Virus record (IMG/VR): IMGVR_UViG_3300045988_150292
Location: 1 to 64,000 of that record
Length of the DNA: 64,000 nt
Strand: one strand, 5' to 3'
Source of the DNA: a virus
Every line of letters begins with the position of its first letter. The stretch's first letter is position 1. Positions 3,781 through 64,000 of this stretch are shown one piece after another. Under the pieces are notes generated by a model. That model did not search any database. It was not told the DNA's origin and saw only the letters and a list, made by a program, of their open reading frames with translations. A program made the position numbers and the translations under genes.

Positions 3781-3824
3781 AAACTTTAGCATATTCTCAT
3801 AACACGTTGTAAACAAATGATATA

Positions 3825-4766: not shown

Positions 4767-4778
4767 AAACTTGAAAAA

Positions 4779-10692: not shown

Positions 10693-10695
10693 AAT

Positions 10696-10848: not shown

Positions 10849-10851
10849 AAT

Positions 10852-21143: not shown

Positions 21144-24100
21144 TTATTCGCCACGTTGCACGATTCGGCACTGGGCGGAACCTCCAGTAAACGCAGCCAT
21201 ATCATTCGACGGATAGAGAGCATACAAAGTCCGAGGCGAACAAGACACAGCATTCGCAGTGTTACGTAAACGCAAGCAAATACGGACACGCTCGTCTTTA
21301 CGACGGCTCCAATATGGATAGGATTGTGCAAAAAAACACTGCCAGCTCTGTATGTTGCCACCATTTGCAATTTTGTAAGGAGTAAAGCCGAGGCGGTCTT
21401 GTGTATATCCTTCTGAGAGGATAGGAGGACCGAAGGTTCCCACCTTGGGATATAGAGACTCAAAGCTGAAGGTTCCGAGGTTCGCCTTGGTGTATGTATT
21501 TTCGTCCACCCATTTCCTCTGATCTGTCTCCAGGTAGAAATCCACATAGGCGTCTCTTAACTGCTCCGGATTATATCTGCCTCCAGTATCGAGTTTGTTG
21601 GTTCCCACCATCTCCAAACCGCCACCCCAATAGGCATAGATGTCACCACTGAGATTCATGCCGTGTATCAGACTCATTCTTAACGACAGTTCGAGGTCGT
21701 AGGTCACTTGTGTGCTGGCATCCTTGTAGCCTTTACAGGTGCCTTTCTTGATACGGTAAACCTTGCAGTTCATCACTCCGTCAGAAAGTTTTTCTGCACC
21801 GGGGATATTCTTATATCGGTAGACAGCTCCGTATGCATCAAAATCCGTATCTTCTGCCACACCGAACTCCGTAGCCCACGATGCTGCCATCTGGCTCTCC
21901 ATGCACTGTTCCTTCGGTCTGCCATAGTTGATGTAATAACTGAAGTTGTTCGTGTCCATATTGGCATTCGCTCCAAAGTACGCTTGTCTGCCCAAAATGG
22001 AATAAACCCAGTCTTGGGTGCCCTGCTCCTTGGTGCGCACTCCGCCGTTCTCTCTCCAATCGTTTTCGTTTTTTACGTTGTCGTTGCTCGATATTCCCGA
22101 ACCGAAGAGTGCGTTGGCGTGAAGATTTTTCGTACCATAGAGCAATTCCATACAAATGATGAATACATTCAGAGAGTGATAGCCACCCTCGGCAAACGGC
22201 ACCGGCGATTGTGAATTGACATTAGACACACGGGCTACAGCCTTATTCATTGCCTGGGAAATATCACTGCTTCTCGGATATGTGCGTCCGTCGTCTACGA
22301 ACATCGAGCATACATCCTTTCCATATTGGCTTACGTGGTTCATCGTGTTCGTATCACCCACGGCATAGGTATAGAAAAAATTCCTTGCATTGCCGCCCAA
22401 CGTAGTAATAGGACATGGCGACATTGCAGTGCCGAGAAATGGAAATCTGCCGGTGTCTATACCATCATACTTCACGGGTTTTTTGAATATTCCTGTCAGC
22501 ATCTTGCCGCTGTCGCCTGTCTGACGGTCTACAGGATAGAGGGTGTCGTATCTGCCTATCATCACCGAATACTTCGTCTCCGTGGTCTCCCATGGCAACA
22601 ACTGGCGCACCTTGTTACCCTCGCCATCGTATAGGTCAACAAGTCCCAGGGAATTATAAACCTCCGCTGCGTCGTAAGGGTGCTCACCTGCCTTATCGGT
22701 TACAATAACACCATTTTTCAGCGTCAATGGAGTAGTGTGCTCAGCATCGGTATAGAGCTGCACGTCACACGCAGCACGCATCTCCTCCGTAATGCCCACG
22801 GTAGGTGCGAACGCTCCACTCTTGAAGCGGAAGAGATTGTTACCCATCAGCTCACCCACAGGGTGCGTAGCCTCTCCTGTGTTGTCGGTGTGGTCGATGA
22901 GATAGAAGTGCCAGTCGGATAAGATTTCCTTGTTGCCTTTGCAGTTCTTGAAATTTGGATCACCTGTCTTCTCGTCGTTCTCGCCGACATAATAGTCGGC
23001 CATGCCCTCCATCTCGCTTCTCAGAGTCTCGATGTTTGCCTTCGTTTCGTCCACCTTCTGATTAATCTTGCTGAGCTGCGTACACATACTCGCCGTCATT
23101 CCGTCCCTCACAACCTTCATCGTAAGGTCGGCAACGTCAACCTTATAGCTCACCACCACCTTGATGGCACTGCGAGACTGAAAGTTTGACACAAAGCGAC
23201 AATATCCGTCCTCTGGAAGTTCAGCATCGGCATTGAGCAGAGTCATCGGCTGATAGCTGCCCACGGTAGTTTGGAATGTAGCAGGCAGATAATCCACGGT
23301 CTGCCCTGTCTGGTCGTCGGTAATCACGCAGCTCTCTACAGCCGCAGCATCAGCATCGTATGCGTAGGTGTAAGAATGAGTCTTGCCATCGTATGTAGCC
23401 TTGGCAGAGGCTATGCGTCCCTTCTCGTCGTATGTGTATGTATATTCAATCGCCCTACGCTCAATCTTGTCGATATACTCGGCAAACACGCACACATTTC
23501 CGTCTGTAGCCCCCGGCTTGAACAGGTATTCGTTGCCAAGCTCGGCAGTAAACACCGCAATCGCCCAGCCCTGCTTGCTCACCTTCACACCGTCGGCAGA
23601 AATAGCCACGTTCTGCTCCGAAGGAGTGAGCACAATGTCAGGACGCTCCGAATACGGACCAAGGCTCTTTTTCATTCTCGCTACATCGCTCACATCACCT
23701 AAATCGGCAGTCTTCACTGTTCCTGTGCGGTCGGTAACGGTCAGCACATGGTCGTCGTCCATCACGGCGTTCACCTTGCTTGCTCCGTTGGCGGCGGCAT
23801 TGGCATTAGCCGTTGCCGTGTCGGCATTTGTCGCTGCCGTGTCCGCCTTGCCCGTAGCAGTGTAAGCAGCAGCAGTAGCGGCTTCGGCAGCAGCCACCGC
23901 AGCATCATTGGCAGCCTTGTTATCTTTCGCAGCCTGCTCACGCTTTGCCTCTGCACGCTGTCGTGAGAGCTCGGCAAGTACACGTTCGGTTTCGGCGGAC
24001 ACTCTTGTCGTCTCGTTCTCCTGTCTCGCCTGTTCCGAAGTGGTGCGCTCCCTTTCGGCTGCCGTGCGTTCCTGTTCAGCTGATTTGCGCTCTGTTTCAG

Positions 24101-25208
24101 CAGTTATGCGCTCGGTCTCATTCTTGCCACGTTCGGTTTCAGCGGTCACTCTTGCAGTTTCGTTCTCCTGTCTTGTCTGTTCAGAAGCAGTGCGTTCCTG
24201 CTCGGTAGCCACACGTGAGGCTTCGCTGTCCTTCCTTGTCTGCTCTGCCGTGGTGCGTTCCTGCTCGGCATTGTCCCTGCCAGTCTCAGCCTGCTTGCGC
24301 AGCGTTTCGGCAGCGTCGCGCTTGCCCTCAGCGTCTGCTCTCACATTTTCGTGCTGACGGCGCTCCTGCTCGGCATCATTGCGGTCGTTCTCTGCCGTAT
24401 CACGGAGCTTTTCGGTTGCCTTGCGGCTTGTCTCCGCATCCTCACGCTCTTTCTCGTTGCGGATGCGGTCTGCCTCGTCACTCTTGCGCATCTTCTCCGC
24501 TTTCTCACGTGATGTCTCGTTTGCATCGCGGCGCTGCTCGGCATCGCTTCTGCCGGTCTCGGCGCTCGCTCTGTTCTCCTCTGCGGTCTTGCGCAGGTTC
24601 TCGTCGCCCTGCCTTGCCTGTTCCGCCTTGTCGCGTGCGGTTTCGGCAGTAGTGCGCTCCTGCTCTGAGGTGATACGACCTTCTTCCGCCTCCTGTCTTG
24701 CCGTTTCCGCTGCCTTGCGTTCCGCTTCTGCTTCCGCTACATCTGCGGCGATGTCGGTGGCTGGCTTGCGCAGAAAAGCGTACCAGTCTGCGAGTGTTCC
24801 CGTGTTGCCCTCACTGAGCCACACTTCGTATGCCGAAAGTCCGGGCTTGCCTATGAGCACGTTGCTCTGTAGACTCACCATAAAATCCTCGAACTCCACA
24901 TCGTCGTCGCTCTCCTCGCAGGAATGTGCCACGAGTATGAATGCCTGGTCTGCACAGACTGTCCTACGTGGTGCTCCTTCGGTAGCGTCTTCGAGTATCA
25001 CCGCCCTTGCTCCCGTCATGCGCTGCATGGAAGCAGGGTAGACAAAGCTCACCACGCAGCCTTCCACTGTGAAGGTCGTGATTTCTTCTTTCCTATACGC
25101 CGACCTCAGGTAGAGCTTCAGCGCCTTCCCTTCGAGGCTCACGGCTTGTCCGTCCGTCTTCACCTCCCATCTGACATTGATGTCATTGCCGATTCTTACC
25201 TTTCTCAT
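21144..25208 (-). CDS. Tail fibre / receptor-binding protein (1354 aa)
   Basis: The N-terminal Ig-like part resembles BppU_N. The GKPGLSAYEVWLSEGNTGTLADWYAFL motif is common in fibres. A long heptad coiled coil is followed by a ~900-aa C-terminal globular part. Confidence 0.65.
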   Translation of the reverse strand: MRKVRIGNDINVRWEVKTDGQAVSLEGKALKLYLRSAYRKEEITTFTVEGCVVSFVYPASMQRMTGARAVILEDATEGAPRRTVCADQAFILVAHSCEESDDDVEFEDFMVSLQSNVLIGKPGLSAYEVWLSEGNTGTLADWYAFLRKPATDIAADVAEAEAERKAAETARQEAEEGRITSEQERTTAETARDKAEQARQGDENLRKTAEENRASAETGRSDAEQRRDANETSREKAEKMRKSDEADRIRNEKEREDAETSRKATEKLRDTAENDRNDAEQERRQHENVRADAEGKRDAAETLRKQAETGRDNAEQERTTAEQTRKDSEASRVATEQERTASEQTRQENETARVTAETERGKNETERITAETERKSAEQERTAAERERTTSEQARQENETTRVSAETERVLAELSRQRAEAKREQAAKDNKAANDAAVAAAEAATAAAYTATGKADTAATNADTATANANAAANGASKVNAVMDDDHVLTVTDRTGTVKTADLGDVSDVARMKKSLGPYSERPDIVLTPSEQNVAISADGVKVSKQGWAIAVFTAELGNEYLFKPGATDGNVCVFAEYIDKIERRAIEYTYTYDEKGRIASAKATYDGKTHSYTYAYDADAAAVESCVITDDQTGQTVDYLPATFQTTVGSYQPMTLLNADAELPEDGYCRFVSNFQSRSAIKVVVSYKVDVADLTMKVVRDGMTASMCTQLSKINQKVDETKANIETLRSEMEGMADYYVGENDEKTGDPNFKNCKGNKEILSDWHFYLIDHTDNTGEATHPVGELMGNNLFRFKSGAFAPTVGITEEMRAACDVQLYTDAEHTTPLTLKNGVIVTDKAGEHPYDAAEVYNSLGLVDLYDGEGNKVRQLLPWETTETKYSVMIGRYDTLYPVDRQTGDSGKMLTGIFKKPVKYDGIDTGRFPFLGTAMSPCPITTLGGNARNFFYTYAVGDTNTMNHVSQYGKDVCSMFVDDGRTYPRSSDISQAMNKAVARVSNVNSQSPVPFAEGGYHSLNVFIICMELLYGTKNLHANALFGSGISSNDNVKNENDWRENGGVRTKEQGTQDWVYSILGRQAYFGANANMDTNNFSYYINYGRPKEQCMESQMAASWATEFGVAEDTDFDAYGAVYRYKNIPGAEKLSDGVMNCKVYRIKKGTCKGYKDASTQVTYDLELSLRMSLIHGMNLSGDIYAYWGGGLEMVGTNKLDTGGRYNPEQLRDAYVDFYLETDQRKWVDENTYTKANLGTFSFESLYPKVGTFGPPILSEGYTQDRLGFTPYKIANGGNIQSWQCFFAQSYPYWSRRKDERVRICLRLRNTANAVSCSPRTLYALYPSNDMAAFTGGSAQCRIVQRGE
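23949..24731 (-). repeat. About 35 consecutive 21-nt (heptad) coding repeats, [A/S/T/N/D]E-x-x-R-x-x
   Basis: AETARDK AEQARQG DENLRKT AEENRAS AETGRSD ... AETERVL, spanning roughly aa 160-420 of the fibre. Confidence 0.85.
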
Positions 25209-52494: not shown

Positions 52495-54042
52495 TCAGTC
52501 GTCGTCTCTGATGAAACTCTCGCTGTCCTCCTTCTTCACCGGAAGCTCGGAAAGCAACACCTGCTCCATAACCCTATCCTCAGTGGCTCCGTATACCTTA
52601 TAGACCATGCCGGAAGGTGTCTTCCTCTTGAAGAAACGCTCCTTGTCCCTCATAAGCCTGCCGAAACGCTGTATAGAAGGGATGTCCCTCTCGTCAACGT
52701 CATTGTCCCTGCAGAACGTAGTGAAGCTCGTATACATCTTCGCAGCGGGTATCTCAACGCCTATCTCGTTCTGCGCCTCCTTGCCCGGACGCATACCGTA
52801 AGCCGCTACCCAGGCAGTAATTGGCTGGCTGCTCATCAGACTCAACAGCTTCTGCCTGTCGTTCAAGTCTGACTCCGGGAACACGAAACGACGCTTCCTC
52901 AGCTCCTGTGCACCGCGAAGGACCCAGTTGAAGACTCCGCTGAGCTCGGAAGAGACTATCTTTGAAGACAATGCCTTGTCCTCCTTCTCCTTGGGGACTA
53001 CGACGTTGAAGCTCACGAACTGAAGCCTTCGTATGAATCCGAAAGAGGCATCCTCGGAAAAAGGAAGCTCGTTCATGTTGAAGATCATATACGGAAGCCT
53101 GCGGGTCTCAAGGATATTCTTCCCCAATTCCCTCATAGGGACAGGCTCTCCGCTGACAAGTCTCTTGAACATTCCGTTGTCTCCCCTGCCGAACTTCTTA
53201 GCGTCAGAGTCCATTGACCAGTTGAAGATGGCGTTCCTTATAGGGAACCTCCCTCTCATTCCCTCGTCTCCCTGCGCAGTCAGCGCCCCGTAGTCCATGG
53301 AACTTATCCTCTCCTTGCCGAAAAGGGCACTCATGACCTCATACACTACGCTCTTGCCGTTCTTTCCGGTACCGAGGAGTATAAGGCACAACTCTATCTT
53401 GGAAGTCGTCTTCCCGTCATATTTGTTATACGCATCACCCCTCTGCACAAGACCGAGTCCGAGGAACATCTGAAGTATCAGACGGGAGGTCTTGTCCGGA
53501 AGCATCTCGTGAAGGAAACTCTGCCATCTCAAACACTTCGCCTTGGGGTCGAAATCATAAGGGTGGTAGTATATGACGTGCCACTCGGGACCGAATGGCA
53601 TCACCTGAGGGTCTATCCTGTTAGTGCCGAAATCAACAACACCGTTCTTGAAAGCTACGACATCAAACTGCGGACTCAATACATTATACAGCTTTATCGT
53701 AGCCAGAAACACATCCCTCATCACTGTAACGTTGTCAACCATCCTCGCAAGCGCAAGACCTTCAAGCAACAGCCTGTACGCCTGCTTCACCACATCATCG
53801 TCACACCTCTCGTATATCACTCCGTTGAAAAGATAGAAACTGCCGTTATACCACTTCACAGGACAGTCCTTCGCAAGCTCCCTTATGCCACGGCAGAAAG
53901 AAAGCTTCTTGCTGTTATACAACTCACCATTGGTACGTCCCCACTCACTCCGCAGAGAGTCAAGACCGTAACGCGGATTCCTCGACAACGTAAGCAACTG
54001 CTGGTACAGAGTGTCTATCATCAATCCTGTATTCCTGCTCAT
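52495..54042 (-). CDS. P4-type primase/helicase (D5-like SF3 NTPase)
   Basis: Walker A LLGTGKNGKS and Walker B-like IFNWSMDSD. Layout matches the phage/plasmid primase P4 C-terminal domain. Confidence 0.7.
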   Translation of the reverse strand: MSRNTGLMIDTLYQQLLTLSRNPRYGLDSLRSEWGRTNGELYNSKKLSFCRGIRELAKDCPVKWYNGSFYLFNGVIYERCDDDVVKQAYRLLLEGLALARMVDNVTVMRDVFLATIKLYNVLSPQFDVVAFKNGVVDFGTNRIDPQVMPFGPEWHVIYYHPYDFDPKAKCLRWQSFLHEMLPDKTSRLILQMFLGLGLVQRGDAYNKYDGKTTSKIELCLILLGTGKNGKSVVYEVMSALFGKERISSMDYGALTAQGDEGMRGRFPIRNAIFNWSMDSDAKKFGRGDNGMFKRLVSGEPVPMRELGKNILETRRLPYMIFNMNELPFSEDASFGFIRRLQFVSFNVVVPKEKEDKALSSKIVSSELSGVFNWVLRGAQELRKRRFVFPESDLNDRQKLLSLMSSQPITAWVAAYGMRPGKEAQNEIGVEIPAAKMYTSFTTFCRDNDVDERDIPSIQRFGRLMRDKERFFKRKTPSGMVYKVYGATEDRVMEQVLLSELPVKKEDSESFIRDDD

Positions 54043-54589
54043 ATCAATTCTCTCTTCTCCTCATTTCACAATTATATTATACAATACGCTAAATACATCA
54101 AAACACACGCAAAAACATATGTAAAAACGTATATCCAATGTAAAAATGCACATTATGATTATTCAGTGCACACTTCTGAACATTGTAGAAGATTGACGTT
54201 TTTCATCAAGTCGTTGAAAACCAATGATTTACGAAATTATCCATACCCGTGGTTTTTTGCCTAACCCAATTTTAACTTCAATCTATTGTATAGCAAAGAT
54301 AAGAAAAATTTCTATAAATATGCAGAAGTACTTTAAAATAAGGGGATTATTATGCATTGTTAACATACATAATATGTAGGATAAATATGCTAAGACAAAA
54401 TCTGACATTTTGAGTGTTTGACCACACTCATATTTTCAAAACAAGCCCCTCTGTATACTTATGCAAAATAACAGGTGTTAACAATCAATGAATAAATCTT
54501 GACAATTAACCTAAATTTGCAGTTGAGAAAAACAAGAAAAAGAAAAAATTTTTGTGGGGTGAGTGACCGCGAAAGCGCCCATTTCCCAT

Positions 54590-54598
54590 GGGGGGGGG
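54590..54598 (+). repeat. Poly-G tract (9 nt) in a GC-rich islet of the AT-rich control region
   Basis: CCCATGGGGGGGGGTGGGTG, preceded by a CGC-GAAA-GCG tetraloop hairpin. Confidence 0.9.
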
Positions 54599-55003
54599 TG
54601 GGTGTCCTTCATTTTTGGTGTCATACCAACACTTATTAAACGTCTATCACACACGTTAAACTATGTTATTTTAGATAACCTTGTTTTGTAAAGATTTTTT
54701 CACACTTTGAAAACCCTTTGTTACTTTTGTAATTATATTTTGTAACCCTCTGTCCTTCAACCACTTACATCCGTATATTAATTCTTTTCTTTTGTATATA
54801 TATCCACAAAAGGCTGAATATTGTATAATTGTATTTACACACTCAAACGTTATCATTATTTAATTAAACTTATATAAAATTCACTCTGTTATTGACCCTC
54901 TTTTGTTAACACACCTTTCGTTTCTTAATTTATATTTTGTGTTTATTGTGTAACTTATTGAATATCAGTTATTTACACGTTAGGTTAAAAATCTAAATTT
55001 TTG

Positions 55004-55011
55004 TATATTTG
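55004..55011 (+). promoter_or_regulatory. -7 box TATATTTG; candidate promoter of the + strand early array
   Basis: Matches TAnnTTTG with a TTTTTG stretch just upstream. No + strand gene lies before it in the 1-kb gap. Confidence 0.45.
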
Positions 55012-55142
55012 TTTGGCAGCTACATATATTGTTAGTACCTTGGGGTACGTTCAGCGGAACGCATATATATACCTATGCTATAGGCGTATCTGGTTGTCTG
55101 GTAGAACCGATATTAAATCTGCCACTTAAATTACATAGAATT

Positions 55143-55433
55143 ATGGATATTATTTTAAGAAATGCTTTTTTCTTCGATGAAAAAACTGGAGTGTTAACAG
55201 ATGAGCTAACTACAGATTTTGTAAGGGCTTGCAAGGCGTGTGGCGTGTGGGAAACTTATGGCATCGTATGCCTCCCCAATCGTCTGTTACGTGTCATTTA
55301 CTTCGATGTTGCGGAATTTGATGAATACACTTTAAACGTGTGGCTGAAAAAATTCCCAGAAAATACTTGGGGGCTTGATGATGAACATCAAGCAATTGCC
55401 GTGGTATTCGCAGAGTACCCAATACCGTATTAA
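55143..55433 (+). CDS. Hypothetical early protein
   Basis: An internal ATG sits in the AGAATTATG context (MDIILRNAFFFDEK...). The track ORF begins at 55029. Confidence 0.5.
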   Translation: MDIILRNAFFFDEKTGVLTDELTTDFVRACKACGVWETYGIVCLPNRLLRVIYFDVAEFDEYTLNVWLKKFPENTWGLDDEHQAIAVVFAEYPIPY

Positions 55434-55443
55434 TTAATGGCAA

Positions 55444-55490
55444 TCCGTGTTAGTTCGAGGCTATACCGTGGTTCAAATCCATGGCACGGA
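55444..55490 (+). other. tRNA-like T-arm plus acceptor-like stem (not a complete tRNA)
   Basis: CCGTGG-TTCAAAT-CCATGG (55466-55484) is a canonical GGTTCAAATCC T-arm. It is enclosed by the stem TCCGTG(55444-55449)/CACGGA(55485-55490). No D arm or anticodon arm is present. Confidence 0.35.
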
Positions 55491-55495
55491 ACAAC

Positions 55496-55531
55496 GGCAA
55501 TATTGCCCAATAACTAAAAAAATTCAAAATT
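55496..55531 (+). promoter_or_regulatory. Hairpin + TAAC-box leader unit U0
   Basis: GGCAATATTGCC palindrome, then CAATAACTAAAAAAATTCAAAATT-ATG. Confidence 0.5.
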
Positions 55532-56050
55532 ATGAAAACTCTAAACGAACGTGTGAAAGATGTGGTGCGTACCGTTGTACTCGATGCGGATTATACGGAA
55601 TTAGGTGAACAATCTAAAGCCGTGCAAGAATGGCTACAGAATGATGCTAAATTCATTCAGTTGAAAAAAGCGTTAGAAGCCTACAGACTTAAGGCTTTTG
55701 CAGAAAACGCTGAGTACCAGAAAATAAGCCGTGCTACATTGTTCACCGCTTTTGTAGCGGTAGTAAAGTTGGTAAAAGGTGTCAACATTCCCGAAAACTA
55801 CCTAACTGAGGACGACGGTAATACCCTTGCGCGTCTTGCATCTGAGAATATATGTGATACAGATTCACGTATAGCTTCACTTATATGTCGGATTAACGAC
55901 ACCTTTAAGCCGGCAAAGGTTACACGTACAACAGAATTCATTCCGTACACTATTGCGGAAATTCGCAAATTGGTTGAACTCATTCAGTTGGGTATTTTGG
56001 AACGTGAAGCGGTGCGAAGACAAGTAAGAGAAGGAAAACGGAAACGTTAA
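55532..56050 (+). CDS. Hypothetical early protein
   Basis: 172-aa ORF with a basic C-terminus. Confidence 0.55.
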   Translation: MKTLNERVKDVVRTVVLDADYTELGEQSKAVQEWLQNDAKFIQLKKALEAYRLKAFAENAEYQKISRATLFTAFVAVVKLVKGVNIPENYLTEDDGNTLARLASENICDTDSRIASLICRINDTFKPAKVTRTTEFIPYTIAEIRKLVELIQLGILEREAVRRQVREGKRKR

Positions 56051-56072
56051 CCGCTACAGACAAGACAAAAAA

Positions 56073-56102
56073 AGGATTGCAATATATTGCAGTCCTTTTT
56101 TT
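56073..56102 (+). terminator. Intrinsic (bidirectional-type) terminator
   Basis: 10-bp stem AGGATTGCAA/TTGCAGTCCT, flanked by A7 upstream and T7 downstream. Confidence 0.8.
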
Positions 56103-56118
56103 GATACCAGATTTTTTT

Positions 56119-56144
56119 AGGGTGCCCAAATTGGGTACCCTTTG
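56119..56144 (+). terminator. Second hairpin terminator
   Basis: 9-bp stem AGGGTGCCC/GGGTACCCT, followed by TTTGTT. Confidence 0.5.
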
Positions 56145-56887
56145 TTATATCCTTTTTTTTCAGAGGATGAAGATTCTAAAAACTGTCTAAACCGACATTC
56201 CGTATATCTCAAGTAACGGAACACTTCCAGACGGAAATAAATTTCCGGAGGATGTGGCAGGTGAGAGGACAGACAGAGGGCAAACCTTCATAGTGATATG
56301 GAGGAGCGGAGGAGAAATCCCGTCGAGCTGTCGAGAAAATCAGGAAGGAGTCAAGCGAGCGTTTAAGCGTGCTAACTACCTTTTCCGAGTCAAGCCCTAC
56401 GCACTGAGTAGGAGTAGATGCAGGCACGGAGAGCAGGATCACGGCAAAAGTTGTACGGATCCCGCCACGATCCGAAGGCAAAGGAGAAGGCAAGAGCAGC
56501 CAGCAGAGGCAGGAGCGGAAACTCCCAGGAGAGCAACCCAATGCACCGTGGAGCCTGAGCCTAACATAAAGCGTTATGTGGGTATTGAGAATTAATCATA
56601 ATTCATATTCTATCGTATGAGCGTGCGAGGTGTGGTTAACCAGAAACGCTCAATATCCGTTATCCGTCACGTGTGGCGGAGCGAGTGAAGAAAGTAGATA
56701 CTGAACGGATTAATGAAATCTACCTGAAAGCGGTTATATGTGAGCCGTGTTACCCTTGAGTATGCAGCAGAAAAACATATCGGACCAATCTTGTTTAATT
56801 GGAGGGTGCCGAATGACGTGAGACATTTTGCAACGAGAGCAAAAGGAAATAGAGGCATCCTGGCTAATGGGGTTGAGAAATCAACCC
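56145..56887 (+). ncRNA. Candidate large structured non-coding RNA (class unknown; strand tentative)
   Basis: About 0.75 kb with no credible ORF in an otherwise tightly packed genome. GC content is like coding DNA and the + strand is purine-rich. It contains many short perfect hairpins: 56198-56221, 56232-56247, 56456-56474, 56564-56579, 56664-56679, and 56870-56887 (GAAA loop). Confidence 0.4.
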
Positions 56888-56917
56888 TACAATATAAACC
56901 ATTAAAATTGTAGAATT
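56870..56917 (+). promoter_or_regulatory. Hairpin + AACC-box leader unit U1
   Basis: GGGTTGA-GAAA-TCAACCC, then TACAATATAAACCATTAAAATTGTAGAATT-ATG. Confidence 0.55.
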
Positions 56918-57148
56918 ATGAAGAAGATTGCGTGCAGTTCATTGTGTGTGTTGTTTATCATTTTGGCGTGCTCCCTGATACCTGCCTATATCACAGGTGT
57001 CAGGGAGCTGCTGGATTCAGCCACACTGACGGAGATAGACTGGAGCCTGACAGTGTGGAGCGGTGTATTGTTCACCGTTTCCACTGCCTTCCTCGGTGTT
57101 GTCATTGCAGATGTGTTCATAACTGCATATCTGGCGGTAAAGAAGTAA
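56918..57148 (+). CDS. Small membrane protein
   Basis: 76 aa with two TM helices. Confidence 0.55.
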   Translation: MKKIACSSLCVLFIILACSLIPAYITGVRELLDSATLTEIDWSLTVWSGVLFTVSTAFLGVVIADVFITAYLAVKK

Positions 57149-57158
57149 AGCCTTAACG

Positions 57159-57238
57159 AGCAGGACATCGTGTAATGTGGTGTCCTGCTTTCATCATTAA
57201 CTGAATGATTTGGAATTTAATTTGAAAACTATAGAATT
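57159..57238 (+). promoter_or_regulatory. Hairpin + TAAC-box leader unit U2
   Basis: AGCAGGACA...TGTCCTGCT, then TTCATCATTAACTGAA...TATAGAATT-ATG. Confidence 0.55.
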
Positions 57239-57355
57239 ATGACAAACGACGAGATTTATTACGAGATGGCAGGCGGTTATATCTGCCTCTGCCATTATGG
57301 AGAGCAGCTCCCAGAGACTTCACCAGAGAGAGAAGGAAAGGAGGTGGCACTATGA
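57239..57355 (+). CDS. Very small protein (38 aa; below the track cutoff)
   Basis: MTNDEIYYEMAGGYICLCHYGEQLPETSPEREGKEVAL*. ATGA coupling to the next gene. Confidence 0.4.
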   Translation: MTNDEIYYEMAGGYICLCHYGEQLPETSPEREGKEVAL

Positions 57356-57588
57356 GAAGAGAGAAGATATATTCAAGTACGATAATTCTGCTTGGAATTA
57401 TTCAGGTGCTTCCAATTTTCCTGCTCCTGGGAAGTACGATAATTGGCGGTCTGCTTGGAGTGTTTTATGCCGTTCTGCTCTGGAAATTCTGGAGAAGTAC
57501 GAGAATTGGAAGATGGTTCATGCGAGAGTGGTGGCGTTCCACGCTGCTGCTTGAGAGGATCATCTTCGGAGGCAATGCAGAGTGTTGA
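57352..57588 (+). CDS. Small membrane protein
   Basis: 78 aa with two TM helices. Confidence 0.5.
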   Translation: MRREKIYSSTIILLGIIQVLPIFLLLGSTIIGGLLGVFYAVLLWKFWRSTRIGRWFMREWWRSTLLLERIIFGGNAEC

Positions 57589-57620
57589 AATTCTGCGGTG
57601 AAAATGCCGGAGCCTGAAAA

Positions 57621-57667
57621 CTGCCTGTAATCCGGGCAGTACGATAATAACTAAAAACGAAAGAATT
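57621..57667 (+). promoter_or_regulatory. Hairpin + TAAC-box leader unit U3
   Basis: CTGCC...GGCAG, then TACGATAATAACTAAAAACGAAAGAATT-ATG. Confidence 0.5.
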
Positions 57668-57841
57668 ATGAAAGTATTGATTAGAGAAAGGTATTTTACA
57701 GACAAGTTCACCTGCAACGAGTTTTACAGAGAACATGTCATTACACGCATGGAAGAGCGTGGAGATATGTACCAGTTGTATCAGGGTGCATATACATACA
57801 TGTGTGTCCCAAAAAGTGACATTATAAATATAGAATCATGA
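57668..57841 (+). CDS. Small protein (57 aa; below the track cutoff)
   Basis: MKVLIRERYFTDKFTCNEFYREHVITRMEERGDMYQLYQGAYTYMCVPKSDIINIES*. Confidence 0.45.
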   Translation: MKVLIRERYFTDKFTCNEFYREHVITRMEERGDMYQLYQGAYTYMCVPKSDIINIES

Positions 57842-57990
57842 AAACAAGAAGACAGGCAGCCATGGAGCTGCTTCCATTGTATAATTCAATGGAAACAAGG
57901 AAAATCACATTAGGCACTCTCGCAAGGAAAATGTATAAGTGCGGTGATTGCTGGAGATGTACCGGTGTTGGCTACGACTACACCGTGTAA
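57838..57990 (+). CDS. Small Cys-containing protein (50 aa)
   Basis: ATGA overlap with the upstream gene. Contains ...KMYKCGDCWRCTGVGYDYTV*. Confidence 0.45.
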   Translation: MKTRRQAAMELLPLYNSMETRKITLGTLARKMYKCGDCWRCTGVGYDYTV

Positions 57991-57997
57991 GCCAAAA

Positions 57998-58050
57998 AAG
58001 GCAGTACGATAATCTGTGCTGCCTTCATTGTCTAACTAAAACTTTGAATT
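57998..58050 (+). promoter_or_regulatory. Hairpin + TAAC-box leader unit U4
   Basis: AAGGCAG...CTGCCTT, then CATTGTCTAACTAAAACTTTGAATT-ATG. Shares GGCAGTACGATAAT with U3. Confidence 0.55.
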
Positions 58051-58377
58051 ATGGAATATATCAGAACAAAAGAGTATGACACGCCCATCGACGTGTATTT
58101 CGACGGAGAGAAGTACGTTTTCATCAACCGCTTCATCGGTCTCGTTGCCGTTGCCAGAAGAAAAGGGACATCGGCATTCTCCGATGACGGGAACACCTGT
58201 TATTCCACATTCTCAGTGGAGCACACTGACGGCATCTGCAAGGAGACGATAATAAAGGTGATACAGAAGCAGGAGAGCCAGTATCTCCCGTGCAGCGTCG
58301 CCTACAAATGGAAGGAGGAGCAGAAATATTCCTCTCTTCGTTACTCTGTCTCCGTGAAGCTGGAGAGAATGGGATAA
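58051..58377 (+). CDS. Hypothetical early protein
   Basis: 108-aa ORF. Confidence 0.55.
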   Translation: MEYIRTKEYDTPIDVYFDGEKYVFINRFIGLVAVARRKGTSAFSDDGNTCYSTFSVEHTDGICKETIIKVIQKQESQYLPCSVAYKWKEEQKYSSLRYSVSVKLERMG

Positions 58378-58387
58378 GCCTGAACGG

Positions 58388-58443
58388 TCCTCACCTCAAA
58401 AAGGTGGGGATTTCTTTTTACTAACCCTAAAAAAAGAAGAATT
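58388..58443 (+). promoter_or_regulatory. Hairpin + TAACC-box leader unit U5
   Basis: TCCTCACC-TCAAAAA-GGTGGGGA, then TTTCTTTTTACTAACCCTAAAAAAAGAAGAATT-ATG. Confidence 0.6.
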
Positions 58444-58806
58444 ATGAGAACAAGAAAGTACAAGACCCTGACAGGGCTGCTGAAGGCATACGACAGAAAG
58501 CAGTTCACAATGAACGATTTCTTGTCTGGACGAATCTATGACGGCTACAAGACATTTAAGTTTGAACTGTCTGACGAAGCCCTAAGAGAATTGTCCGACG
58601 GCTTTTGTTATGCCTGCAACTGCCAGAAATCAAAACGCGACACGGTTTTCTTCAACATGAAATTCCATAAGATATTGAACCGTGGTATTCTGGACAGGCT
58701 ATGGGTGGAGTTATGGAATGGCAAACCGAGCTTCACCTTCTGCGTAGGACAGGACGGAGATTATGAGTATCCGCTTGTTAGAAGAACCCTATATCGGGGT
58801 TATTGA
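58444..58806 (+). CDS. Hypothetical early protein
   Basis: 120-aa ORF. Confidence 0.55.
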   Translation: MRTRKYKTLTGLLKAYDRKQFTMNDFLSGRIYDGYKTFKFELSDEALRELSDGFCYACNCQKSKRDTVFFNMKFHKILNRGILDRLWVELWNGKPSFTFCVGQDGDYEYPLVRRTLYRGY

Positions 58807-58813
58807 GCCAAAT

Positions 58814-58869
58814 GGCGTACATTTCCAAGTGTGCGCCTCATTTTACTAACCCTTTAAAACATTAGAATT
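58814..58869 (+). promoter_or_regulatory. Hairpin + TAACC-box leader unit U6
   Basis: GGCGTAC...GTGCGCC, then TCATTTTACTAACCCTTTAAAACATTAGAATT-ATG. Confidence 0.6.
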
Positions 58870-60438
58870 ATGATTTTTATTAAAAGTTTCAAAAACTACG
58901 AAGAGTTCAAGAAGTTGTTTGCAATCGTGGAACACGGCAACGGAGCCAAGTCTCGCAAGAACAAGATTCTGCTTGCATGGCTCAAGGACAGACGCTTCCT
59001 CAAGGCGTGGCTCTCTTTCCAGAGGACCATGCTGAACAAAGGACTGGTGGCTGAAGAGTTCGTCTACAAATACGATTATCTTAACGCCAGAAGTATGGAC
59101 GATGTGAAAAAAGCCGTTCTCCGTATCTCGGAGTCATTCGCCGCATATCATTTTGACGGCGGACAACCTCAATGGATGGAGAATTACGGACCTTTTGTCC
59201 TTAACGACTGGCCATTGCGCCACCGGACTCTCTATATCGACAGCCGCCACGGGTTGTGTGCCGACGGAGACACGAAATCCGTCCGCTACATCAATTCAGA
59301 GCGTGGCGACAGGGTGTTCAAGATGAAGGCAGGAAAATTCATAACTTCCTGTCTCGACAGCCTGCCGTTCACAGAAATCCTACCTGAACAGGTCAAACGA
59401 TGGATAGGCGAGGAGTTCGCCCGTGACTGGCAGGTATATGCAGAGTCCCTTATCGGAGAGTCTGCGTTGACGCTCCACGTGGGATCTGACAAAAGCGACT
59501 TTGAGACCATCTACGACAAAAACCTATACAAGGGAGATTTCCACTCCTGTATGGGAGGCGAGGACCAATACTTCTTCTATGCCGACGCCGTGGATGCCAG
59601 CGCAGCATGGCTGACAGACAGTGACGGAATGATAGTGGCACGTTGTGTCATCTTCAATGACGTCATAGACGAGGAAGGGAAATCCTGGAGACTGGCAGAG
59701 CGTCAATACTCGTCCGATATGGACGAAGTTCTAAAGCAGACGCTTGTGAACAGACTCATCAAGGAAGGCCTCATCGACGGCTACAAGCGTGTCGGTGTCG
59801 ATTGTCACGACAACAGGAATTTCGTCGCCAACAACGGCGAGTCCCTGAGGGCGAAGCGGTTCTCTATCGAATGCCGGCTGTGCGATGGTGATACGTTGTC
59901 GTATCAGGACAGCTTTGTCTGTTACGACTACAACAAGGACATCGCATACAATCATTCCGATGTATACTACACCGACGATCTGGACGTAACCAATCATCAT
60001 TTCTACTGTTCACACGACAACGAAAGATGGTCGGACTATTCGCAAGAGTGGATCGCCGATAATGTCGCCGAGTATGACGACTATCACGAGGACTGGATGC
60101 ACGAGGACTGTTCGACTGATGCTATATATAACGGACACCACATCCATATCAACGAATACCGCACGAATGATTTCGTGTGGTCTGAAGAGGAAGACTGCTA
60201 CATCTATGAGGATGAGGCGGTATGGGTTGAAAACCTCAACGACGACATCCTCAGAAGAAACGCCGTCGAGGACATCCACGGAGAGTGGCAGCGTGCAAAC
60301 GATTGTGTGCACTCTGCATATCACGATGAGTACATCCTCAAAGAGGATGCTATTTACTCCGAAGTCCTCGAAGACTGGTTCGAAGACGAGGATACGATGC
60401 ACGAAGCAGAGAAAGAAGAACTTGAAGTAGAAGCCTGA
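58870..60438 (+). CDS. Large early protein with a hyper-acidic, aromatic-rich C-terminal third
   Basis: 522 aa. The last ~170 aa are dominated by D/E/Y/W/H (DDYHEDWMHEDC..., EEEDCYIYEDEAVWVENLNDD..., EDWFEDEDTMHEAEKEELEVEA). No family recognised. Confidence 0.6.
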   Translation: MIFIKSFKNYEEFKKLFAIVEHGNGAKSRKNKILLAWLKDRRFLKAWLSFQRTMLNKGLVAEEFVYKYDYLNARSMDDVKKAVLRISESFAAYHFDGGQPQWMENYGPFVLNDWPLRHRTLYIDSRHGLCADGDTKSVRYINSERGDRVFKMKAGKFITSCLDSLPFTEILPEQVKRWIGEEFARDWQVYAESLIGESALTLHVGSDKSDFETIYDKNLYKGDFHSCMGGEDQYFFYADAVDASAAWLTDSDGMIVARCVIFNDVIDEEGKSWRLAERQYSSDMDEVLKQTLVNRLIKEGLIDGYKRVGVDCHDNRNFVANNGESLRAKRFSIECRLCDGDTLSYQDSFVCYDYNKDIAYNHSDVYYTDDLDVTNHHFYCSHDNERWSDYSQEWIADNVAEYDDYHEDWMHEDCSTDAIYNGHHIHINEYRTNDFVWSEEEDCYIYEDEAVWVENLNDDILRRNAVEDIHGEWQRANDCVHSAYHDEYILKEDAIYSEVLEDWFEDEDTMHEAEKEELEVEA

Positions 60439-60440
60439 AA

Positions 60441-60500
60441 AAAGGCGGGAGATGTAATGCTCCTGCCTTTACATCATTAACCATTAAAACATTTAGAATT
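60441..60500 (+). promoter_or_regulatory. Hairpin + TAACC-box leader unit U7
   Basis: AAAGGCGGGAG...CTCCTGCCTTT, then ACATCATTAACCATTAAAACATTTAGAATT-ATG. Confidence 0.6.
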
Positions 60501-61442
60501 ATGAAAGAAAAATTGAATTACGAGTTACTTAAAGATCTGTACTGCATCCATTCAAAAAGCGGCAGCGAGAAACGCATCCGTCGATTCATCAAGAAATGGC
60601 TAAAAGCTAATGTTCCTGAAGCTGTCGTGACACAGGACAATATAGGAAACCTCTACATCACGAAAGGTGTTGCGGTTAATTACCCCTGCCTGTGCGCACA
60701 CATGGACCAGGTGCAGGATTTCCATCCTTCTGACTTCACTTGTGTGGAGACTGACGAGGTCATTTTCGGCTATTCGCCCAAGATGCGCAAGCAGTGCGGA
60801 CTGGGAGCCGACGACAAGAACGGGATATTCCTTGCGCTCTCTGCGCTGATGGAATACCCTGTCCTCAAATGTGCCTTCTTCATCGGAGAGGAAATCGGCT
60901 GCATCGGCTCAAGCGCCGCAGACATCGGCTTCTTCATAGACTGCCGTTTCTGCGCCCAGATTGACAGGCGTGGAAGCAGTGACATGGTGACAGAAATCTC
61001 CGGTCCGCTCTGCTCAGATGGTTTCATCAAGGCTGCGGACTGCGAGAGCTGGGGCTACCATGAGTCCGGCGGAATGATGACGGACGTAGAGGCGCTTGCA
61101 GAAGCCGGTGTCAGCGTGTCGTGCATCAATCTGTCCTGCGGATATTACGATCCGCACACCGACTGCGAGTTCACCCACAAGCCCGACCTTGAGAAATGCT
61201 GGGCTTTCGTATGCCATCTCATAGAGGACTGCACTGCGGTCTATCCGTTCGAATACACAAACGGATGTCAAGGTTCAACAAGAACTTTTTACGTCAAAGA
61301 CAGTCTCTTATATGAGATGGAATGTGTCCTTGCAGAAGAACCGAATACCACATTCAGAGACTTCTACGACAACGTGGGATGTATGTATTCTGAGGTCAGT
61401 AGAGAAAGTCAGCACATACTGTTCGACTTTGCTAAGAAGTAA
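60501..61442 (+). CDS. Zinc metallopeptidase-like protein (M20/M28/M42 clan pattern)
   Basis: The ordered ligand-like motifs CAHMDQV, GLGADDKNG, GEEIGCIGS and YDPHT are typical of co-catalytic aminopeptidases. Confidence 0.5.
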   Translation: MKEKLNYELLKDLYCIHSKSGSEKRIRRFIKKWLKANVPEAVVTQDNIGNLYITKGVAVNYPCLCAHMDQVQDFHPSDFTCVETDEVIFGYSPKMRKQCGLGADDKNGIFLALSALMEYPVLKCAFFIGEEIGCIGSSAADIGFFIDCRFCAQIDRRGSSDMVTEISGPLCSDGFIKAADCESWGYHESGGMMTDVEALAEAGVSVSCINLSCGYYDPHTDCEFTHKPDLEKCWAFVCHLIEDCTAVYPFEYTNGCQGSTRTFYVKDSLLYEMECVLAEEPNTTFRDFYDNVGCMYSEVSRESQHILFDFAKK

Positions 61443-61451
61443 GCCTTAAAG

Positions 61452-61508
61452 AGCCCTGCTCCTCACGGAGTGGGGCTTCCTATTTTCTAACCTTTAAATT
61501 TCAAGAAT
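61452..61508 (+). promoter_or_regulatory. Hairpin + TAACC-box leader unit U8
   Basis: AGCCCTGCTCC-TCAC-GGAGTGGGGCT, then TCCTATTTTCTAACCTTTAAATTTCAAGAAT-ATG. Confidence 0.6.
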
Positions 61509-62186
61509 ATGGACAAGAAAAAGTACATTGAAATTCTGTCTTCCGAGGCGGAGAAGAACGGCAGGCCACAAGAGTCTGCCCTGGATGATTTCCTCGACTA
61601 CGTGATAGACTATTTCGACGTCAAGAGCCTGCAGTCCGGTATGGACTCATACGGCAATCACATTCTGGAGCAGAGGCGCAAATCGCACGGCTTCTTCAAT
61701 CTTGTCATAATGTGGCTTCAAGATGTCGCCAAGGCTATGGAGCGTGGAGAATGGCTCGATGTGTTCGGCATTCTTTATGAGGAGATGTACCTCTCTCGCG
61801 GCAAGGCTTCACGCACGGGACAGTTCTTCACTCCCCAGTGCGTGTCAGGCCTCATGGCTCAGGTAATCGACACCGGCAAGGAATGTGGCACGGTCAACGA
61901 CTGCGCTTCCGGCAGCGGACGTCTCCTTCTCGCCCATTATATCAGCAAGAGCAGGACGGATCATTATGCCGGACGCCGCTTCAAGTATGTGGCGCAGGAT
62001 TGCGATCCTATCGCCTGCAAGATGTGCGCCTGCAACATGATGGCGCACGGAATGTACGGAATGGTCATCTGCCAGAACACTCTGACGATGAGCGTGCCCT
62101 CCGTTGTGTACTACATCAACGAGGCTAAATATCCGTTCGACACACCTTACTGCTCCATCCGTGCGGTACGCAACGAAAAAGCCTGA
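61509..62186 (+). CDS. HsdM/N6-methyltransferase-like SAM-binding protein with no recognisable catalytic motif IV
   Basis: FGILYEEMY...TGQFFTPQCVSGLMAQVI, motif I VNDCASGSGRLLLA, and YVAQDCDPIACKMCACNMMAHG. The protein ends ~35 aa after CQNTLTM with no (N/D)PP(F/Y/W). Confidence 0.55.
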   Translation: MDKKKYIEILSSEAEKNGRPQESALDDFLDYVIDYFDVKSLQSGMDSYGNHILEQRRKSHGFFNLVIMWLQDVAKAMERGEWLDVFGILYEEMYLSRGKASRTGQFFTPQCVSGLMAQVIDTGKECGTVNDCASGSGRLLLAHYISKSRTDHYAGRRFKYVAQDCDPIACKMCACNMMAHGMYGMVICQNTLTMSVPSVVYYINEAKYPFDTPYCSIRAVRNEKA

Positions 62187-62190
62187 AACG

Positions 62191-62228
62191 GCCTCCCCTG
62201 TGGAGGCACATGTTTAACCAATTAAAAA
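62191..62228 (+). promoter_or_regulatory. Hairpin + TAACC-box leader unit U9
   Basis: GCCTCC-CCTGT-GGAGGC, then ACATGTTTAACCAATTAAAAA(ATG)ATT-ATG. Confidence 0.6.
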
Positions 62229-62447
62229 ATGATTATGAATACGAATTTAAAAATTGCGCAGTGTGGAATCAGTGATGTTGTCGGTGGCAGAATGTGGTTT
62301 TGTGTAAAGCCCGACAATCCGCGTAAGGTTGAACGTTTTTATACAAAGAGAGAGTGCGAGGCGTATATACGCAAAGAACATAATTCTAATCCTTATCTTC
62401 TGAAAGAATTGCGTAATACTCATGGCAGAGCTTTTATTTACGCCTAA
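62229..62447 (+). CDS. Small early protein
   Basis: 72 aa. An alternative start at 62235 fits the ATTATG context. Confidence 0.5.
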   Translation: MIMNTNLKIAQCGISDVVGGRMWFCVKPDNPRKVERFYTKRECEAYIRKEHNSNPYLLKELRNTHGRAFIYA

Positions 62448-62450
62448 AAA

Positions 62451-62496
62451 CAGAGAGTTTGTGCTCTCTGACATTATTAACCAAAATTCAGAATTT
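62451..62496 (+). promoter_or_regulatory. Hairpin + TAACC-box leader unit U10
   Basis: CAGAGAG-TTTGTG-CTCTCTG, then ACATTATTAACCAAAATTCAGAATTT-ATG. Confidence 0.65.
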
Positions 62497-62769
62497 ATGA
62501 GAAAGATAAAATGTGACTACCATTATGTAGACAACCTCGTCGCACGATACGAAGAGAAGGGAGGATATGCCATACAGCTCAATGAGGGTTCGCTCGCTTC
62601 TGGCGACTGGATTCTGTACGACGACACAGGGAAGCTGAAATGCTTCTATATCTACGAGGAAGCTCTCAGCTCATGGGCTTCTTGCCAGATCGTACAGGTT
62701 TACAGGGACTGGAACGGATTCCCGAAGAAATACAAGAAGATGGTGGAATCCTGCTGTGTCTACGCCTAA
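62497..62769 (+). CDS. Small early protein
   Basis: The start is moved to MRKIKCDYHY. The track start at 62422 would read through the hairpin and box. Confidence 0.5.
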   Translation: MRKIKCDYHYVDNLVARYEEKGGYAIQLNEGSLASGDWILYDDTGKLKCFYIYEEALSSWASCQIVQVYRDWNGFPKKYKKMVESCCVYA

Positions 62770-62772
62770 AAA

Positions 62773-62819
62773 CAGAGGGAGCAATCCCTCTGCCATTATT
62801 AACCAAATTATCAAGAATT
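62773..62819 (+). promoter_or_regulatory. Hairpin + TAACC-box leader unit U11
   Basis: CAGAGGGA-GCAA-TCCCTCTG, then CCATTATTAACCAAATTATCAAGAATT-ATG. The flanks are near-identical to U10 while the stem has compensatory changes. Confidence 0.65.
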
Positions 62820-63047
62820 ATGAAGAGATTTTACGTATCAGTCACAGAGACTTTAAACAAGGTAGTAAGTGTAGATGCCGAGAACGAGAAAGACGCATTG
62901 GAACAAGTAAAAGCAGCCTACTATGATTCGGCTATTGTTCTTGATTCTGACAATTTCTGTGGAGAAACTATAGAGATTGAAGACGACCAGCAGTTCTATA
63001 TCGACTATGAGAAGGACTACGGCAAAACCTATCAGCACGTAGACTGA
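62820..63047 (+). CDS. Small early protein
   Basis: The start is moved to [14 protein letters not shown]... (75 aa). Confidence 0.5.
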
Positions 63048-63054
63048 GCCGGAC

Positions 63055-63097
63055 GGAGGCACACGCCTCCACATCATTAACCAAATTTTTTACAATC
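63055..63097 (+). promoter_or_regulatory. Hairpin + TAACC-box leader unit U12
   Basis: GGAGGC-ACAC-GCCTCC, then ACATCATTAACCAAATTTTTTACAATC-ATG. Confidence 0.6.
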
Positions 63098-63574
63098 ATG
63101 GATATAGCAATAATGAATTATTCGACAGCTGAAATCACAACAATCACAGGCTGTCCCGACAAGTGGGAGAACGAGCAGATCGAAGAATATCTCTTCAAGA
63201 AACTCAATCTCAAAGAGAGTGAAATACACTATATGTGTGCCAAAAGCGTCACCCACAAGACGGAGAAATACCGGACGCTTGAGGTGTGGCCTCTCCTGGA
63301 GCAGTTCCAGGAGCTGAAAGTGAAGCATCCTGATGCCCTGTTGCTCTTCCGTAGCGGCGATTTCTACGAGGCTTATATGGAGGATGCAGTGACAGCCGCC
63401 AATCTCCTCGGAATAACGCTGACACGCTACAGCAAGCAGGTGGACGGCGAAGGCAAGCCGATAAAACTGGCAGGATTCCCTTATCATGCTCTCGACACCT
63501 ATCTGCCGAAACTCATACGGGCAGGACAGCGGATAGCCATCTGCGACTATACGGATATTCTTCCTGAACGATAG
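63098..63574 (+). CDS. Standalone MutS domain I (mismatch-binding domain) protein
   Basis: Residues ~65-150 ([47 protein letters not shown]...[32 protein letters not shown]) align with the MutS N-terminus (TPMMQQYL.LKAQHP..LLFYRMGDFYELF..DA..AS.LL.I.LT.R....G.PIPMAG.PYHA...YL.KLV..G..VAICEQ). The Phe-x-Glu motif is kept. No other MutS domain is present. Confidence 0.75.
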
Positions 63575-63589
63575 CCGCAAGCCTTGAAA

Positions 63590-63636
63590 GGTGGGGTTGA
63601 AAAGCCTCACCGCATACAAACCAAAACTTTAGGAAT
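63590..63636 (+). promoter_or_regulatory. Hairpin + AACC-box leader unit U13
   Basis: GGTGGGG-TTGAAAAG-CCTCACC, then GCATACAAACCAAAACTTTAGGAAT-ATG. Confidence 0.55.
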
Positions 63637-64000
63637 ATGACAGAACAGGAAATCATCAGGAGGGTGGAGAACGGAGAGAAGTTCTTCATAAACCTCGAAA
63701 AGCGCACTCTGCGCATCGCAAACCACCTCGTTGACCTCAAGGAGGTGGAGATGCCCGAATACGACGGCGACGTGTTGAAGGAGATAGAGAGGAGATACAG
63801 GATATACAAGCACTCCGTCCCCTCCGAACGCTCTGAGTCCCACCGTCGCAGGTATTTCAAGGCTCTGCCGGAAAGTAAGCTGTCCGACGAGGCGATGATG
63901 TACGGAGAGCAGCGTGAGGTCGCACGGTGCAGCCTTGAGCTATTCGTCCTTATGGCAATAGTCAGAGGCATCCTCACATGGCACGAGGAATGGGGCTCGT
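63637..64000 (+). CDS. Hypothetical early protein (partial; runs off the window)
   Basis: The frame is open from the ATG at 63637 to the window end (MTEQEIIRRVENGEKFFINLEKRTLRIANHLVDLKEVEMPEYDGD...). It is absent from the track because no stop codon is reached. Confidence 0.55.
   Translation, partial: MTEQEIIRRVENGEKFFINLEKRTLRIANHLVDLKEVEMPEYDGDVLKEIERRYRIYKHSVPSERSESHRRRYFKALPESKLSDEAMMYGEQREVARCSLELFVLMAIVRGILTWHEEWGS

Follow-up and report, generated by a model that had tools for sequence, protein, structure and literature searches.

A phage-encoded MutS domain I protein of the Msl type beside a UG27 reverse transcriptase system

The locus and its genes

The window, by which we mean the whole 64,000-nt stretch of DNA analysed, carries terminase, portal and other phage genes, and its source is a gut Bacteroidota phage. 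Near its 3' end lies a gene for a small MutS-like protein, followed by the first part of a UG27 reverse transcriptase (RT) system (Table 1). An identical 158-aa protein is encoded on 4 public contigs, and five orthologous phage contigs carry the gene intact, the orthologues sharing 91-96% identity with dN/dS values of 0.24-0.47, which indicates purifying selection. A megablast search of window positions 61000-64000 against GenBank phages returned no match and no near-identical genome.

Table 1 Features in and around the MutS-like gene (window coordinates).
Feature	Coordinates	Strand	Basis or remark
DpnD/PcfM-like 75-aa protein, 5' neighbour	62820..63047	+	Identical gene of L002 matches Pfam PF14207 at E=1.2e-13
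Upstream intergenic element: GC-rich stem-loop GGAGGCACACGCCTCC, then ATTAACCAAA (63076-63085), 12 nt before ATG	63050..63097	+	
Msl-type two-domain MutS-like gene, 158 aa	63098..63574	+	ATG-to-TAG ORF, Pfam MutS_I
N-terminal orphan domain, residues 1-60, strand-strand-helix-strand	63098..63277	+	AlphaFold2 (AF2) pLDDT 95
MutS domain I core, residues 65-152	63290..63553	+	Lacks the last ~27 Pfam domain positions
GDFYE motif, G87-E91, with Phe-x-Glu mismatch wedge	63356..63370	+	Alignment to MutS GDFYE
UG27 small accessory protein (sORF, RTas346), 5' part, 121/142 codons	63638..64000	+	Cut by window end

The 10-mer ATTAACCAAA recurs exactly at 62476-62485, 62798-62807 and 63076-63085 (+), each copy 11-12 nt before an ATG. 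The small genes that it precedes are successive (ATGs at 62497, 62820 and 63098), each has a GC-rich stem-loop on its 5' side, and a 47-nt repeat (D5; 62439-62485 and 62761-62807) spans the copies before 62497 and 62820. ATTAACCAAA and its stem-loop look like a putative repeated intergenic regulatory or initiation element. The same arrangement points to 62497 as the likely true start of the 115-aa ORF at 62422. No ArdC homologue was found in the window phage.

The original prediction had placed a Rad52-like annealing protein, an exonuclease and an SSB in one recombination module at 3034-5162. The last two assignments stand, as positions 3825-4766 encode a RecE-like/PD-(D/E)XK exonuclease and 4779-5162 an SSB (PHROG 4932, DUF3127). 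The first is not supported: the ORF at 3034-3780 (+) matches only PHROGs labelled 'unknown' or 'exonuclease', and neither a Pfam family nor a PDB sequence, leaving no evidence of an annealase.

Elsewhere in the window, a 313-aa ORF in the accessory gene block (60501-61442, +) matches PHROG 4191, 'peptidase', at E=2.4e-47, and no Pfam family. In the structural region, a 1354-aa ORF (21144-25208, minus strand) contains diverged direct repeats of 67-83 nt at 23981-24273 and 24599-24665 (60-81% identity, 63-147 nt spacing), which point to an internally repetitive protein. An AT-rich 60-nt direct repeat, its copies 82% identical and 156 nt apart (10639-10698 and 10795-10854), lies 5' of the ORF at 10852.

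A trimmed MutS domain I fused to an orphan domain

From the letters alone, the C-terminal ~90 residues of the protein had been read as MutS's mismatch-recognition domain with its GDFYE motif retained, and this reading holds in full: the homology to domain I is far beyond chance. Residues 65-152 match positions 2-86 of the 113-position Pfam MutS_I profile (PF01624) at E=5.9e-26 and 91.4 bits, the gathering cut-off being 20.6 bits. A phmmer search against PDB sequences recovered MutS of several species at E about 1e-21 and aligned residues 87-91, GDFYE with its Phe-x-Glu, with the GDFYE of E. coli MutS. Structure prediction bore this out. The AlphaFold2 model, built on an alignment of 95 relatives from which the phage B124-14 sequence was left out, has a mean pLDDT of 84, and Foldseek placed its residues ~63-152 on MutS domain I with an rmsd of 1.7-2.2 A over 84-91 residues (E about 1e-9).

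The connector, core/lever, clamp and ABC ATPase domains (II-V) are all missing from the window protein, as originally predicted. The ORF stops at residue 158, NCBIfam MutS equivalogs match only at model positions ~3-87 and far below the model cut-offs, and the gene on the 3' side (from 63638) belongs to a different family. With domains II-V absent, and with them every domain that ATP-driven repair signalling requires, the protein is unable to signal repair.

Overlooked at that stage were a separate, conserved N-terminal domain of 60 residues, the place of the gene at the head of a UG27 locus that the window end cuts, and the fact that proteins of this kind have already been described (polyvalent MutS-I, DGR MSL and ORF064c of phage B124-14). 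The N-terminal 60 residues gave no Pfam match, no PHROG match and no PDB fold match (all E>1). Across 39 sequences, Y8, P20, W23, Y31, L32 and L36 of this domain are invariant. The module also stands free as a 62-aa ORF at the syntenic position in related phages (L034 9488-9676), so we read the window protein as a fusion of this module and a MutS-I core. The free-standing ORF lies just 5' of DpnD and the UG27 RT in L034, and likewise in L040, L044, L051, L053, L059 and L076. Seven apparent tblastn matches in UG27 loci proved to be this free-standing N-terminal domain only and were discarded as MutS-I candidates.

All 38 two-domain relatives (38-95% identity) end at one point, just after AICD, and this shared stop falls ~27 positions short of the Pfam domain end. 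The two-domain subfamily carries a few wedge substitutions, from E to V or C and from F to Y.

A widespread family captured from Bacteroidota hosts

We searched 5.8 billion proteins and obtained 3236 matches at E<=0.001. Without exception, the best 120 are short MutS_I-only proteins (106-280 aa) whose sources are gut and rumen metagenomes and whose contigs belong to phages or mobile elements. Proteins of MutS-I standing alone (Msl) are widespread among the phages and mobile elements of gut Bacteroidota. The mismatch wedge is near-invariant in an alignment of 96 of the best 120, with F89 in 95/96 and E91 in 93/96. In the same alignment R85, D96, A97, L104, G143 and R145 are invariant, and position 110 is basic in 79/96.

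A scan of species-representative genomes gave canonical MutS of Bacteroidota, 870-900 aa long, for 70 of its 80 nearest sequences, and all close genomic relatives of the window domain are from Bacteroidota. The phage core is 60-67% identical to Bacteroidota MutS, compared with 44-47% to the MutS of E. coli and Neisseria, which indicates that the domain was captured from the host lineage. The window protein is therefore an Msl-type mobile-element protein: a C-terminally trimmed MutS domain I of host-lineage origin, fused to an orphan N-terminal domain.

In other phage and mobile-element contigs, MutS-I is found C-terminal to ArdC-N plus a metallopeptidase, or to ParB. ParB-like proteins (ParB_N plus HTH_ParB) with a C-terminal MutS-I are encoded at L135 8210-10309, L156 8204-10270, L168 8303-10276 and L136 4634-5857, an architecture unlike the ArdC-N fusions that the literature stresses. 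Two giant Bacteroidales ORFs of 1658 and 2059 aa carry an internal MutS-I (L277 7929-12902 and L238 8705-14881), the former with two tandem copies; both are presumably polyvalent proteins.

A UG27 system directly downstream

The locus can be followed past the window end on L002, a 25-kb public contig that is 99% identical to window positions 53119-64000 and extends 9.5 kb beyond. L002 10540-14500 holds a complete UG27 system of sORF, bORF, RT and ncRNA array, with everything from bORF onward lying outside the window. The sORF product (142 aa), encoded in the same orientation as the MutS-like gene and starting 63 nt after it, matches PADLOC RTas346 at E=1.6e-49; bORF (333 aa) matches RTas337 at E=6e-101, and the RT (421 aa, YSDD motif) matches RT_UG27 at E=6.7e-222. 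All three genes, and the non-coding stretch that comes after them, share the strand of the MutS-like gene. PADLOC gave no match for the MutS-like protein itself, only for these three downstream neighbours. The + strand of the 63-nt gap has no terminator-like site, and the MutS-like gene is probably expressed from an accessory gene block together with the UG27 genes that follow.

An 890-nt non-coding stretch of the L002 locus folds far better than shuffled sequences (z=-12.8), and the published UG27 unit motif, ATC-N7-TANAG, occurs in three copies at an exact spacing of 155 nt (L002 13849-14173). No Rfam family matches the ncRNA region. Of four predicted cDNA hairpins, for which unit boundaries are approximate, three fold significantly better than shuffles (z of -3.9 to -6.9). 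These three (L002 13755-13852, 13910-14007 and 14065-14162, minus strand) are long and imperfect. The predicted hairpins are interrupted by 1x1 mismatches and small bulges, the interruptions being most regular in the first unit. Mismatches and small bulges of this type are classic MutS-I substrates.

We considered and rejected a DGR at this locus: the downstream RT is UG27, and neither a TR/VR pair nor a DGR-type RT was found. Neither the window nor L002 showed a TR/VR-like repeat, a permissive blastn on the merged 73.5-kb sequence found none either, and the window itself contains no YxDD or other RT motif. No Avd was detected, and neither UG27 accessory protein matches a Pfam family.

MSL genes recur beside UG27 but are not part of its core

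To ask how tightly MutS-like (MSL) genes go with UG27, we collected 80 IMG/VR loci whose RT is 77-99% identical to that of the window locus. The DpnD/PcfM-like gene adjoins the UG27 RT in most of them. A MutS-like gene is present in only the five closest loci and absent from 75/80, and we therefore rejected MutS-I as a core UG27 component. A pooled sample, for which a distant clade with an RT::sORF fusion served as second seed, comprised 135 UG27 loci in 30 RT clusters at 95% identity. Here an MSL gene is present in 8/30 clusters, and all 17 MSL genes lie on the RT strand within 2.9 kb of the RT (+/-10 kb searched). They occur in at least five gene orders: DpnD-MSL-sORF-bORF-RT in the window, MSL-DpnD-sORF-bORF-RT in P0017, MSL-sORF-bORF-ncRNA-RT in L095 and L100, RT-ncRNA-sORF-bORF-MSL in L128, MSL-x-x-RT::sORF-bORF in L125 and bORF-ArdC-DpnD-RT...MSL in P0075.

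In the clade of the second seed, found on contigs of 100-145 kb, RT and sORF are fused into one ORF of 530-555 aa (L125 12291-13883 and L143 13794-15461). A larger MutS-I protein (346-546 aa) is encoded 0.4-2.7 kb upstream in 5/14 loci of this clade. ArdC-like genes (ArdC-N plus a zincin metallopeptidase) lie directly beside the UG27 RT in L170 (7937-8983), L172, L173 and L306 (1489-2523), an adjacency suggesting that UG27 may belong to an island of anti-host 'arrival' genes.

Taken in the reverse direction, UG27 lies no more than 6 kb away in 7/50 phage MSL loci after dereplication. In these 50 loci MSL most often neighbours a separate ArdC gene (14/50) and, next in frequency, an integrase (10/50). 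Other neighbours include PcfK/PcfJ/PcfM, RadC and resolvase genes. No neighbour is universal among the MSL loci, with PcfK/PcfJ, SSB and exonuclease each near only a few, and for many MSL genes the surrounding 6-10 kb hold neither an RT nor a recombinase. MSL genes are thus placed recurrently beside UG27, ArdC and DpnD/PcfM genes. Their linkage to UG27 is suggestive and short of proof, since the data fit a facultative functional partnership and co-residence in one variable accessory island equally.

Possible roles of the window protein

We tentatively favour a reading that we regard as a real possibility, though short of probable: the window protein would attach to phage DNA that contains mismatches or bulges and, as it cannot recruit MutL, would screen that DNA from host MutS. 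Its MutS-I would bind DNA of the phage's own making that is mismatched, bulged or distorted in some other way, candidate substrates being heteroduplexes from the exonuclease/SSB recombination module and/or RT products. By occupying mismatch sites and recruiting no MutL, the protein would keep host MutS off them, which amounts to substrate shielding and not to repair. The MutS-I fold, the near-invariant Phe-x-Glu and the purifying selection among orthologues all count for this reading, as does the fusion of the domain to, or its place beside, DNA-handling 'arrival' proteins (ArdC-N plus metallopeptidase, ParB). So do the facts that MSL is a known DGR accessory and that the window gene lies 63 nt 5' of the UG27 sORF. 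Mismatch binding by full MutS also uses domain IV and both subunits, however, which counts against shielding by domain I alone, and so does the loss of the wedge Glu (to V or C) or the change of Phe to Tyr in a few two-domain relatives. With 75/80 closely related UG27 loci lacking MSL, and many MSL genes lying apart from any RT or recombinase, no single partner pathway is established.

The rationale for shielding comes from DGRs and retrons, host MutS being a known brake on DGR retrohoming and on ssDNA recombineering. MutS knock-out improves retron recombineering, and deletion of host mutS raises DGR retrohoming 5-10 fold in one Bacteroides strain (10.1101/2024.11.15.621889). The same two observations lend indirect support to the original suggestion of an anti-mismatch-repair or pro-recombination factor, an inferred role that is partly supported, although neither demonstrated nor original to the window locus. 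A natural, compact protein that shields DNA from mismatch repair would explain how mismatched DNA products are kept safe by phages that carry retroelements. Recombineering could also gain a tool from it, to be used in place of dominant-negative MutL.

Rather unlikely, in our judgement, is a role as a general module for DNA ends or ssDNA/dsDNA junctions that coats or marks the phage genome, as ArdC-N does, with no relation to mismatches or their repair; its use would be anti-restriction, or replication help for an entering or replicating phage genome. MutS-I is frequently fused to or beside ArdC-N plus MPTase and ParB, and the PcfK/PcfJ/PcfM, RadC and resolvase neighbours are those usual in the arrival regions of mobile elements. 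Iyer et al. (PMC5512222) proposed that the domain recognises short single-stranded stretches in the replicating element. But the near-invariant Phe-x-Glu wedge is specific to the interrogation of mismatches and IDLs and would be superfluous for generic binding, and the window phage has no ArdC homologue.

We also think it unlikely that the protein is a dedicated, facultative UG27 factor that binds the mismatched and bulged cDNA hairpins of UG27, whether to stabilise the hairpins, to deliver them or to read them out; host mismatch repair would then be affected secondarily or not at all. In the window clade the MutS-like gene does lie directly 5' of sORF-bORF-RT. Across the pooled sample, the 8/30 RT clusters with MSL have it on the RT strand, at most 2.9 kb from the RT and in several gene orders, and 5/14 loci of the RT::sORF fusion clade carry it. 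UG27 cDNAs are bulged hairpins, three of the four hairpins predicted here are significant and imperfect, and there is a precedent in DGRs, another RT system that MSL accompanies. Yet RT, sORF and bORF alone suffice for cDNA in E. coli, and MSL is absent from 22/30 RT clusters and 75/80 close relatives. MSL also occurs in many phages, including B124-14, where no RT accompanies it, and the two genes may simply be residents of one variable accessory island that also houses ArdC, DpnD and integrase.

A broader form of this partnership, in which the Msl-type protein and UG27 act together, with the imperfect UG27 cDNA hairpins, rich in mismatches, as natural MutS-I ligands or with both jointly titrating or blinding host sensing of mismatches and DNA structure, seems to us doubtful. 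If it were so, it would be the first proposed biological role for UG27 cDNAs, and the partnership of Msl with retroelements would reach beyond DGRs to a second RT system unrelated to them.

Improbable, to our mind, is mimicry of a protein surface, in which the domain would stop repair by binding host MutS, MutL or the beta clamp. An identity of 60-67% to domain I of the host MutS would accord with imitation of an interaction surface, and the DGR and retron data give it the same rationale. MutS dimerises through its ATPase domain (V) and C-terminus, however, and domain I carries no dimer interface in established structures; conservation in the family also centres on DNA-contacting motifs. The variant in which the protein poisons MutS as a heterodimer, as the original prediction had entertained, is unlikely because that interface lies outside domain I.

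Very improbable, and largely refuted, is that the gene is a functionless, decaying fragment of a captured host mutS: the protein does cover only the first 86 of 113 domain positions, but it has thousands of relatives (the best 120 all being short proteins on phage or mobile-element contigs), an identical truncation point in 38 relatives of 38-95% identity, dN/dS below 0.5 and a confident AF2 fold.

Comparison with known systems

With canonical MutS, compared through E. coli, Taq and Neisseria structures and Bacteroidota proteins, the window protein shares the domain I fold and the GDFYE wedge. It differs in lacking the last part of domain I and domains II-V, and with the latter the ATPase, the clamp, dimerisation and MutL recruitment.

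MutS-derived domain I outside MutS, in mobile elements of Bacteroidetes and Firmicutes, was described by Iyer et al. in 2017 (PMC5512222), who found ~80% of such proteins to carry ArdC-N and proposed that MutS-I binds single-stranded or mismatched stretches of an entering or replicating element. Some relatives of the window protein are likewise fused to ArdC-N plus MPTase. The window protein, in contrast, is not polyvalent and consists of two small domains without ArdC-N, in a phage without ArdC, and the ParB-MutS-I fusions and free-standing forms found here go beyond the '~80% with ArdC-N' picture.

Closer in form is ORF064c of Bacteroides phage B124-14 (NC_016770), a 'putative mismatch repair protein' of 81 aa that is also domain-I-only and belongs to a replication/early module. 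It is 43.5% identical to the window protein over residues 66-150. Unlike the window protein, ORF064c lacks the N-terminal domain, and the 6.8 kb examined around it yielded no UG27 component.

The window locus has all that defines UG27 systems (Mestre et al. 2022; Li et al. 2026 preprint, 10.64898/2026.09.22.753630), namely sORF, bORF, RT and an ncRNA array whose units are spaced at 155 nt. UG27 cDNAs are hairpins of 50-100 nt with bulges and unpaired regions, and RT, sORF and bORF suffice for their synthesis in E. coli (Li et al. 2026 preprint). The MutS-like gene, in contrast, is none of the three components so defined, and most loci lack it; the word 'MutS' occurs 0 times in either UG27 paper.

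The nearest known counterparts are the MSL proteins of DGRs, small MutS-like accessory proteins of 112-283 aa reported in 16 DGRs (Wu et al. 2018, PMC5758913), with Msl since described in three Bacteroides DGRs (2024 preprint, 10.1101/2024.11.15.621889). We found no published functional experiment on any Msl protein in the literature. Like them, the window protein is a small stand-alone homologue of the MutS mismatch-recognition domain beside an RT system in Bacteroidota and their phages. The neighbouring RT, however, is a UG27 RT with a YSDD motif and not a DGR RT, there is no TR/VR pair and no Avd, and the protein has an extra orphan N-terminal domain. The kind of protein is therefore already known, as Msl or mobile-element MutS-I, whereas its link to UG27 in place of a DGR has not yet been described. 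New here are the orphan 60-aa N-terminal domain, the C-terminally shortened domain I and the position beside UG27, and it is the link to UG27 that a specialist would not expect.
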